Part shown: piece by piece, positions 36,239 through 36,309 of the stretch | How positions within the stretch are numbered: position 1 is the stretch's first letter | Layout of the letters: each line of letters begins with the position of its first letter | The notes under the pieces: model-generated | Told to the model about the DNA's origin: nothing | Database searches by the model: none | Seen by the model: only the letters and a program-made list of their open reading frames with translations | Translations under genes and position numbers: made by a program | Origin: Escherichia phage 121/2022-2B | Direction: 5' to 3' (one strand) | Sequence record: OR958571.1 | DNA length: 64,000 bases

Positions 36239-36279
36239 TTTCTAATCTCCGTAATTCTGTATCAGTAGTTGATAGTTGT

Positions 36280-36309
36280 ATAGTACCACAGTATGCTTTG
36301 GTTGTAAAC
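36280..36309 (-). promoter_or_regulatory. T4-type early promoter for motA
   Basis: Minus: GTTTAC (36309..36304), 18 bp, TACTAT (36285..36280), then conserved ACAACTATCAACTACTGA leader. Confidence 0.55.

Follow-up and report, generated by a model that had tools for sequence, protein, structure and literature searches.

Inverted repeats across T4-type early promoters of Escherichia phage 121/2022-2B pair on the sense strand and are confined by their geometry to read-through RNA

A 64,000-nucleotide (nt) stretch of Escherichia phage 121/2022-2B (sequence record OR958571.1), referred to below as the window, carries a family of early promoters that recur with a similar leader and, at about half of the sites, with an inverted repeat spanning the -10 element. 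The window is collinear with phage T4, running from gene 30 through the tail-fibre genes, asiA, motA, 52, ndd, rIIB/rIIA, 39, motB, dexA, dda, srd and modA/B to gene 41. Its genes lie on the minus strand except for the tail-fibre block (~23-33.5 kb), and the GC skew agrees with this arrangement. One site, at 36261-36309, had been singled out by a first-pass annotation of this DNA as a promoter cassette with a conserved leader and palindromes across the -10. The 6 kb around it are 96.6-97.1% identical to many Tequatrovirus genomes (4E10, MLF4, ECML-134). It is the early promoter of motA and has the conserved leader; no palindrome spans its -10 (fold z = +0.30), so that part of the description belongs to other members of the family.

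The same annotation counted at least 19 minus-strand sites fitting GTTTAC-N18-TA(T/C/G)(T/A)AT. Taken literally, this pattern has 14 matches in the window rather than 19, all on the minus strand and against 0.14 expected from shuffled sequence. With a slight relaxation, in which the -10 elements TATAGT and TATGAT and one spacer of 17 base pairs (bp) are allowed, exactly 19 minus-strand sites with a perfect GTTTAC are obtained, and the figure holds for the promoter family. A 20th site, the cassette at 48156, has a degenerate -35 and was left out of the perfect-stem statistics for the 19. Just three weak matches occur on the plus strand, within tail-fibre (late) genes and without TGn. A generic sigma-70 scan of the window (TTGACA/TATAAT) showed no enrichment, with 62 sites found and 69 expected, and the early-promoter signal is thus phage-specific.

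When aligned on the -10, the 19 sites share an A/T-rich upstream element, GTTTAC, TG at -15/-14 and moderate conservation past the -10, with peaks of information content at the T and G of -15/-14, at A in positions -44, -42 and -40, and in a T-run at -61 to -58. Among 357 unique promoters of relatives, T reaches a frequency of 0.87 at -15 and G one of 0.85 at -14. Within 19-41 nt of the predicted start, each site has a Shine-Dalgarno sequence and an ATG. All 20 sites map by BLAST to T4 intergenic sites on the same strand and at the same positions, upstream of dmd, sp, mrh.2, modB, srd, motB.2, motB, rIIA.1, the ndd.x open reading frames (ORFs), motA, asiA, rnh, frd.3, frd.1, alc, cd.2, 30.8 and 30.7. 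The GenBank record of T4 names an 'early promoter Pe133295 between cd.2 and cd.3', and T4 position 133295 is the A located 7 nt past the -10 in the orthologue of window site 5540 (cd.2). This coordinate match identifies the promoter class and supports the assumption that transcription starts 7 nt after the -10. T4 early promoters have been described as having an excellent -35, TGn, -10 and UP elements 'with additional regions of consensus' (PMC2988021), and the early-promoter reading of the sites agrees with that description. By consensus and by orthology, the window sites are T4-type sigma-70 early promoters, a class that is already known. They have the same UP element, -35, TGn, -10, strand and gene positions as the T4 promoters, from which they differ in nothing essential, the 48156 copy having its degenerate -35 and T4 lacking the genes behind two of the cassettes. 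Promoters of this type are used by the unmodified host RNA polymerase right after infection. Each promoter is composed of an A/T-rich UP element, a -35 GTTTAC, a spacer of 17-18 bp, TGn and a -10 TAnnAT, and would drive a leader of 19-41 nt ending in a GGAG or GAGG Shine-Dalgarno sequence, where RegB also cleaves in T4.

The five inverted repeats that had been reported on or beside the -10 were all recovered, to within 1 nt of their reported positions: those of 30.7 (2110-2140, GGTACAGG/CCTGTACC), rIIA.1 (44427-44442, CCACA/TGTGG, inside the spacer), the 48156 cassette (48108-48150, a perfect 13-bp repeat), motB (48717-48738, GGGACCA/TGGTCCC) and dmd (61432-61457, ACAAGACTA/TAGTCTTGT). The possibility that such palindromes occur at the frequency expected for this AT-rich composition failed in random-position, swap and shuffle controls. 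Perfect stems of at least 7 bp bracket the -10 at 8 of the 19 sites, compared with 9% of 3,000 random positions on the same strand. Pairing of each spacer with its own downstream region gave stems of at least 7 bp in 8 of 20 cases, compared with 3.4% when the downstream regions of other promoters were used; the mean duplex energy was -10.75 kcal/mol for own and -6.38 kcal/mol for swapped pairs (permutation p<5e-5). This control preserves both the composition and the promoter consensus. In this comparison, in the BLAST mapping to T4 and in the accessibility predictions given below, the 48156 cassette was placed 4 nt out of register, its arms nevertheless falling within the segments compared. 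In RNA folds from the -35 to the ATG, evaluated with 200 dinucleotide shuffles, 10 of the 20 sites had z values of -3.6 to -6.2 (dmd, modB, motB.2, motB, the 48156 cassette, ndd.4, frd.1, alc, cd.2 and 30.7). The observed energy was reached by one shuffle in 200 at motB and never at the other nine.

The hairpins have a common anatomy. Their 5' arm always lies within the spacer that separates the -35 from the -10, and the loop holds TGn and the -10, whole or in part. In the comparative set described below, the 3' arm has a bimodal distribution of positions. In class A, represented in the window by dmd, motB, frd.1 and 30.7, the 3' arm begins between -8 and -2 and extends to about +1 to +4; in class B, which accounts for 46 of 141 comparative helices, it lies further downstream and takes in the Shine-Dalgarno sequence. 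Since the start is 7 nt past the -10 and the 5' arm is upstream of the start, the promoter's own transcript lacks the 5' arm, and only RNA read through from upstream can fold. For this reason, the earlier suggestion that the repeats form leader hairpins in the promoter's own transcript was rejected. In sense-strand RNA, the 5' arm of such a hairpin takes up those spacer positions that are free of sequence constraint, and the 3' arm is located past the -10. This placement can be understood as economy, these being the only free positions in a junction of 60-70 nt that must also carry the UP element, -35, TGn, -10, Shine-Dalgarno sequence and ATG.

The extended helices of class A contain 23 G·T oppositions for one A·C opposition, or 19:1 when counted per sequence cluster (p=4e-5). 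An excess of this size indicates a single folded strand and not a duplex DNA recognised by a protein. It points to folding of the sense strand as RNA or, less plausibly, as non-template single-stranded DNA. Strand-biased mutation pressure, the sense strand being G-rich, could contribute to the excess, although it is not expected to yield 19:1.

Comparative loci were taken from T4-like genomes in IMG/VR, around cd, dexA, 30.7 and motA, and scanned by the same promoter rule. An initial gp30.7 set comprised 14 close loci, in which the arms were invariant; for cd, dexA and motA, wider sets with long flanks were obtained. In a set of 372 unique promoters, 33% of own and 4.5% of swapped pairs had stems of at least 7 bp, and 14% and 0.25%, respectively, had stems of at least 10 bp. 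In the alc orthologues, the arms include CCCTCATGTT / AACATGAGG, CTCCATTTGGTT / AACCAAATGGAG, CCTCATTTCGTT / AACGAAATGAGG, CCTCGTTTGTT / AACAAACGAGG and CCTCATCAG / CTGATGAGG, with folds of -15 to -25 kcal/mol. These orthologues were aligned as two blocks whose anchoring did not depend on the pairing, one taking in the -35 with a further 17 nt and the other the Shine-Dalgarno sequence with the 14 nt leading up to it. Compensatory changes, affecting both sides, occur at 9 of the 14 pairs; double-change cells number 48, compared with 20.3 +/- 4 in shuffles, and none of 500 shuffles reached 48. The covariation score was 0.345, and at most 0.166 when the partner columns were slid by 1-3 positions. 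Swap tests agree, with pairing in 76% of own and 18% of swapped combinations for the alc family. For the 30.7 family, stems of at least 7 bp were found in 81% of own and 12.5% of swapped combinations (-18.2 and -8.1 kcal/mol).

The gp30.7 arm is GGTACAGG, GTAGGAGAC, GGTGTAGGAG, CTGATTGAGTGT, CTGAGGTTA or TTGGGTGGT, depending on the clade, and in some clades the hairpin is of another kind, with a Shine-Dalgarno-pairing CTCCGTTGTAT. Among close relatives the 30.7 arms are invariant while the adjoining leader diverges freely; distant orthologues have wholly different arms, and the hairpin is always there. Orthologues of motB.2 similarly retain the helix with other arms. Arms that differ between promoters and covary among orthologues mean that it is the pairing that is conserved, and not the sequence.

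The distribution of hairpins is also related to that of terminators. A survey of 390 unique promoters identified 41 with an intrinsic terminator at most 75 nt upstream. A hairpin was found in 3 of these 41 promoters and in 138 of the 349 others (p=2e-5), or, per cluster, in 1 of 24 with and 70 of 211 without a terminator (p=0.002). In the window, hairpin promoters begin at most 11 nt from the upstream stop codon, and for dmd and frd.1 the G of GTTTAC is shared with the TAG; 30.8 is the sole hairpin promoter that also has an upstream terminator. Unstructured promoters mostly follow a gap of 42-71 nt with a terminator (mrh.2, motA, frd.3) or stand at the start of a unit (rnh). These results show that the pairing in the window is selected, belongs to the sense strand, is confined by geometry to read-through RNA and is exchangeable with terminators. 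The coordinates of the promoters and their hairpins are collected in Table 1.

Table 1. Early promoters, hairpin arms, terminators and repeat copies in the window (z, stability of the fold relative to dinucleotide shuffles)
Feature	Position	Strand	Particulars
30.7 early promoter, class A	2081..2149	-	17-bp spacer; arms GGTACAGG 2133-2140 and CCTGTACC 2110-2117; z = -5.25
30.8 early promoter, class B	2482..2541	-	arms 2520-2528 and 2491-2499 bury AAGGAG; z = -2.11 (borderline)
cd.2 early promoter (orthologue of T4 Pe133295)	5479..5540	-	GGTAGAG 5523-5529 and CTCTACC 5502-5508; predicted start, A at 5504, falls within the 3' arm; z = -4.52
alc early promoter, class B	8801..8861	-	long helix, arms 8837-8855 and 8805-8823; spacer pairs with Shine-Dalgarno region AACATGAGGACTT; -24.8 kcal/mol; z = -6.19
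frd.1 early promoter (D1), class A	18252..18309	-	14-bp helix, arms 18289-18302 and 18272-18285, enclosing and including the -10; z = -3.58
frd.3 early promoter (D1)	18962..19038	-	intrinsic terminator upstream; no spanning hairpin; z = -0.36
rnh early promoter	22858..22919	-	first in transcription unit, divergent from gene 34; no significant hairpin; z = +1.05
asiA early promoter	33781..33844	-	no hairpin; z = +1.10
motA early promoter and leader (D1)	36236..36309	-	-35 GTTTAC 36309-36304; TGn; -10 TACTAT 36285-36280; predicted start A 36273; GGAG (Shine-Dalgarno, RegB site) 36250; ATG 36238; ORF = MotA
intrinsic terminator directly upstream of motA promoter	36342..36363	-	AGGGAGAGCC GAGG CTCTCCCT, then T-run
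ndd.4 early promoter (D1), class B	39391..39451	-	15-bp helix, arms 39427-39441 and 39397-39411, buries GGAGG; -22.7 kcal/mol; z = -4.92
D1 cassette before 87-aa ORF that T4 lacks	39897..39957	-	window/T4 homology breaks in leader, directly after CAACTAC
rIIA.1 early promoter	44394..44451	-	small hairpin CCACA/TGTGG, ~44427-44442, within spacer; z = -0.36
48156 promoter-leader cassette (D1)	48081..48156	-	degenerate -35 ATATAC 48156-48151; TGn; -10 TACTAT 48132-48127; perfect 13-bp repeat 48138-48150 / 48108-48120, 3' arm = conserved leader ATCAACTACTGAT; z = -4.89
motB early promoter, class A	48676..48752	-	arms 48732-48744 and 48710-48723, -10 in loop; z = -4.03
motB.2 early promoter, class B	49810..49869	-	arms 49845-49862 and 49820-49836, G·U included; buries Shine-Dalgarno GAGGA; -23.7 kcal/mol; z = -5.61
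srd early promoter	53666..53733	-	no hairpin; z = +0.59
modB early promoter, class B	55011..55069	-	14-bp helix from 55045 (inside -10) to ATG 55011, buries GGAGG and AUG; z = -3.98
mrh.2 early promoter	57113..57171	-	repeat family D18; no significant hairpin, z = -1.61; upstream intrinsic terminator GGACTCCTTCGGGAGTCC, then T-run
sp early promoter	60906..60966	-	no hairpin; z = +1.07
dmd early promoter, class A	61408..61469	-	arms 61449-61457 and 61432-61440, -10 in loop; -18.9 kcal/mol; z = -3.98
D1 copies (repeat search)	18255-18324, 18984-19053, 36255-36324, 39397-39466, 39903-39972, 48102-48171

What the hairpins may do in vivo we infer throughout from their geometry and predicted folding. 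At alc, modB, motB.2, ndd.4, 30.8 and cd.2, the 5' arm lies upstream of the start and the 3' arm is predicted to pair over the Shine-Dalgarno sequence or AUG. The predicted unpaired fraction of the Shine-Dalgarno sequence in read-through RNA and in the promoter's own RNA, respectively, is 0.01 and 0.72 for alc, 0.00 and 0.43 for modB, 0.00 and 0.57 for motB.2, 0.00 and 0.77 for ndd.4, 0.02 and 0.91 for 30.8, and 0.05 and 0.75 for cd.2. This arrangement is absent from the class A sites dmd, motB, frd.1 and 30.7. In all, the 3' arm buries the Shine-Dalgarno sequence at six or seven window sites, about one-third of the promoters. A different structure was seen in four loci of distant relatives (L099, L065, L067 and L080), in which the motB.2 homologue is preceded by a leader hairpin, GACCTCC...GGAGGTC. 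There, in contrast to the pairing of spacer with Shine-Dalgarno sequence, RNA started at the promoter itself would also have its Shine-Dalgarno sequence buried.

The explanation proposed here, to which a probability of roughly 0.6 may be assigned as a whole, combines early promoters, a composite leader and hairpins that form in sense RNA by read-through only, with separate roles for the two classes. At class B sites, read-through RNA would be closed at that gene both to ribosomes and to the endonuclease RegB; translation would be tied to the gene's own early promoter and would end when early promoters are shut off. At class A sites, the hairpin would sit at the upstream cistron's very 3' end, with ~10-15 nt left to the following Shine-Dalgarno/RegB site, and would stand in for a terminator hairpin at abutting genes. 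Its probable role is that of a barrier to 3'-exonucleases, an insulator or an attenuator for the upstream message. RegB is inhibited by secondary structure, and modB RNA resists RegB in vitro, 'presumably' through stable structure, and is cut in vivo; a read-through hairpin may explain this discrepancy between modB RNA in vitro and in vivo. A broader generalization is held tentatively, at slightly less than even odds: that about one-third of T4-like early promoters carry the 5' arm of a read-through-only hairpin as a genome-wide form of insulation replacing terminators, and that the form occluding the Shine-Dalgarno sequence (alc, modB, motB.2, ndd.4 and 30.8, and 30.7 in other clades) ties translation and RegB sensitivity to the gene's own promoter.

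Occlusion of a ribosome-binding site by a hairpin with a promoter inside it is known from T4 e, soc, 49 and I-TevI (PMC3014915). The layout of these genes, of segB and of Aeh1 mobE is the same as that described here, with the 5' arm upstream of an internal start and the 3' arm over the Shine-Dalgarno sequence or AUG. In genes of the e/soc/49/I-TevI type, the long read-through RNA is closed and the promoter-proximal RNA is open, and the same is predicted for the window sites. According to a 2010 review, 'they are all late genes' (PMC2988022). Late promoters limit the translation of e, soc, 49 and I-TevI to late times, whereas the promoters here are early and the predicted effect is reversed (first minutes). 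No late (gp55) promoter or late gene is involved at the window sites; the internal promoters are sigma-70 early promoters and the genes (alc, modB and others) are early. By analogy, the class B sites would work like the e/soc/49/I-TevI family without being members of it as now described. We infer that occlusion of early genes would be the mirror image of the late-gene mechanism, one that is not described in the reviews consulted.

Another close published precedent is that of the PeSL cassettes and the modular shuffling mediated by them (Arbiol et al., 2010; Comeau et al., 2014). These likewise consist of an early promoter, a stem-loop, a Shine-Dalgarno sequence and an ATG, with stems in the spacer or overlapping the -10, and are likewise tied to indels and gene swaps, the ndd region being a published example. 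The combination of an early promoter with a stable stem-loop in a module of about 70 nt occurs at 10-11 of the 20 window sites, the other nine being plain promoters. In the PeSL papers, the stem-loops are read as terminators or attenuators and as recombination sites, and according to the legend of the PST/T4 figure they lie 'just upstream of the promoter'. On that reading, the hairpins would stop or dampen upstream transcription and supply homology for gene shuffling, without any role in translation. Several observations suit it. Stem-loops of RB49 and phi1 lie 'between -35 and -10 or overlapping the -10', and one of them cut lacZ expression like a strong terminator (PMC2839356). The PeSL stem consensus of PST/T4, AGNA-loop-TCNT, fits class A cores such as TAGGA...TCCTA (PMC4122927), indels between the window and T4 are located at cassette leaders, and mutual exclusion with intrinsic terminators is what a terminator substitute would show. 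However, a U-tract follows the stem in none of the 46 class A clusters and in 1 of the 25 class B clusters, and the 8 nt after the stem are 51-55% A, which makes canonical intrinsic termination unlikely; the hairpins were rejected as canonical intrinsic terminators on this ground. A substitute role remains compatible with the exclusion by true terminators. A terminator for antisense transcription was rejected as well, the opposite strand at the inspected site, cd.2, having no U-run after the stem. Termination alone does not predict that in 46 of 141 helices the 3' arm extends to the Shine-Dalgarno sequence, or that it tracks this sequence in alc orthologues through many compensatory changes, and recombination requires identity between copies, not covarying pairing inside one copy. 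The stems of the window and its relatives thus differ from the published reading in the missing U-tracts, the covariation, the G·U strand bias and the exclusion by true terminators, and one-third of them contain the Shine-Dalgarno sequence. A purely PeSL-like role is, in consequence, considered unlikely, though it is the most serious of the alternatives to hairpins acting in read-through RNA.

The other alternatives place the palindromes in DNA or deny them any function. Operators for a dimeric repressor, as the first-pass annotation had suggested, or cruciforms modulating promoter opening would account for palindromes centred on or beside the -10, and the mechanism by which T4 early promoters are shut off is described as unknown (PMC2988021; PMC3014915). 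An operator would be expected as the same arm sequence recurring at promoters, but the arms are unrelated from one promoter to the next (GGTACAGG, GGGACCA, ACAAGACTA, CCTCATGTT and others), among orthologues the sequence changes and the pairing persists, and helix register and loop length vary from site to site. A duplex operator or two-strand cruciform would penalize both kinds of mismatch equally, so the excess of G·T over A·C is incompatible with either, and a symmetric DNA site is regarded as very improbable. Still less credible is the view that AT-rich composition, the promoter consensus or recent duplication gave rise to palindromes and leader incidentally, with no selection acting on them. 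In themselves, tAGGa, the spacer consensus (~-24 to -19), and tCCTA, the start-site consensus (-4 to +1), complement each other in part, and the D1 copies could be plain duplicates. Swapped pairings, however, carry the same consensus but pair far less, dinucleotide shuffles do not reproduce the folds, and the D1 copies have conserved flanks with different spacers, unlike recent duplicates; the swap and shuffle controls contradict a chance origin.

Several points weigh against hairpins acting in read-through RNA. Nine of the 20 promoters, including that of motA, have no hairpin, and pairing is therefore not a general property of the class. The class B stems show no G·U excess (9:7 per cluster), and the strand assignment rests on class A, whose function is a guess among several. 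The comparative sequences are related and the p-values thus optimistic, an effect that per-cluster counts lessen and do not remove. The alc covariation alignment was built from two anchored blocks, and RNAalifold predicted no pairs in a plain MAFFT alignment of 32 alc upstream regions; this null result can be attributed to shifts of helix register between clades, since the 3' arm follows the Shine-Dalgarno sequence. The attenuation of a reporter by the RB49 stem-loop favours a terminator-like role. With respect to novelty, read-through-specific hairpins in sense RNA, their covariation among orthologues, their exclusion by terminators and the occlusion of Shine-Dalgarno sequences of early genes appear to be new relative to the sources consulted; a search of the literature on dyad symmetry and hairpins at T4 early promoters returned nothing beyond the PeSL papers and the 2010 reviews, and older T4 literature may describe part of this.

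The conserved leader has a more familiar explanation. An unbiased repeat search returned a six-copy family of 70 nt (D1), at the same six sites where a near-identical leader had been reported. The copies have ttttCACAAAACgGTTTAC and gtGGTACTATaCAACTATCAACTAC in common, and their spacers differ. In 357 unique promoters of IMG/VR relatives, the consensus past the -10 is a-g-t-C-c-T-A-(t/c)-a-a, in which G does not exceed 10% from -4 to +9, and the D1 leader CTATCAAC corresponds to this start-site consensus of the whole promoter family. The leader would have three sources: the family-wide start-site context, with C-C-T-A at -3 to +1 followed by a G-poor, A/C-rich stretch; the RegB/Shine-Dalgarno consensus GGAGAAUAAAAUG; and homogenization and shuffling by recombination among dispersed promoter cassettes, as for PeSLs. 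The site recognized by RegB with S1 is a single-stranded GGAGRAYARAA, for which nothing 5' of the GGAG is needed (PMC1702504). The Shine-Dalgarno GGAG of motA is a documented RegB substrate in T4 (PMC1702504), as are the T4 motB, motB.2 and modB sites. The window leaders finish in GGAGAATAAAATG, GGAGATTAGAAAATG and variants, which combine the RegB/S1 target with the start codon; GGAGAATAAAA, in the leaders at 18309, 2541 and 48156, fits the motif, and the motA leader GGAGATTAGAA matches 10 of its 11 positions. RegB accounts solely for the 3' end of the common leader, and the CAACTAC part is left unexplained by it because nothing 5' of the GGAG is required. A literature search for the literal leader sequence gave irrelevant matches only. 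In substance, the recurrent leader is already known, as start-site consensus, RegB/Shine-Dalgarno sequence and PeSL recombination.

Recombination at the cassettes is evident from comparison with T4, as would be expected of PeSLs. Homology between the window and T4 breaks inside the D1 leaders of the 39957 and 48156 cassettes. Directly behind the former is an 87-amino-acid (aa) ORF (MKFKFYYAKHK...MKIAEIEL; 39634-39897, minus strand). In T4 (positions 41990-42060 of the T4 locus), nothing is left beyond the leader and the final eight codons (MKIAEIEL), which are unannotated, and the deletion junction falls right after CAACTAC. The 48156 cassette sits before an 89-aa ORF that is largely deleted in T4; the ~200 bp absent from T4 (47876-48075, minus strand) encode its N-terminal two-thirds, and the breakpoint (T4 locus ~6550-6557) coincides with either the leader's end or the start codon. 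An ndd.4/.5 exchange mediated by PeSLs has been reported for T4 and PST (PMC4122927). The motA cassette has also been swapped, 100%-identical MotA proteins being preceded by two unrelated promoter cassettes in different phages (loci L124-L135). The type of the window and T4 has TATGCTTTG on the opposite strand of the spacer. The spacer of the second type (L124-126 and distant relatives) contains a MotA-box-like TGCTTTA, TGCTTCA or CGCTTTA; at only 7 nt from the -10, this motif is too close for activation and might serve autoregulation.

Further observations concern individual sites and genes. A TAG stop overlaps the first G of the -35 (TAGTTTAC) at 61469 (gene 41), 44451 (gene 39) and 18309 (the gene before frd.1), all on the minus strand, and the UP element of these promoters therefore lies within upstream coding sequence; the same arrangement is present in many alc orthologues. 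At cd.2, the T4 record flags 14 nt (133300-133313; window ~5509-5522) as 'inverted complement of previously reported sequence'. This stretch is exactly the loop, with TGn and the -10, between the arms GGTAGAG and CTCTACC, and the inverted repeat evidently misled the original T4 sequencing. The large subunit of the topoisomerase is encoded by a single frame of 606 aa (44451-46271, minus strand), where T4 has the split genes 39 and 60 (mobA/60.1 insertion, gene-60 bypass); from its sequence, this gene appears to be uninterrupted in the window phage. An ORF at 14998-15735 (minus strand) is identical to T4 I-TevI in 245 of 245 residues, and the td group I intron thus seems to be present. An Rfam search of the whole window returned no family at the gathering score, for the td intron and the hairpins alike; the intron was probably missed because the ORF splits its core.

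The structures described here are present in T4 itself, where the predicted starts of alc, modB and 30.8 are at 136300, 13150 and 130274, and the proposal is thus directly testable in the standard model phage. One practical consequence is that PeSL stem-loops should not be taken as terminators by default. If the proposal is correct, it would explain why GGAG sites such as that of modB are RegB-resistant in long in vitro RNAs yet are cut in vivo. A tightly packed genome would be able to separate neighbouring early genes without spending space on terminators. Synthesis of immediate-early proteins would stop automatically at early shut-off despite continuing read-through RNA, which would help to explain why production of many early proteins falls abruptly while transcription still crosses their genes.

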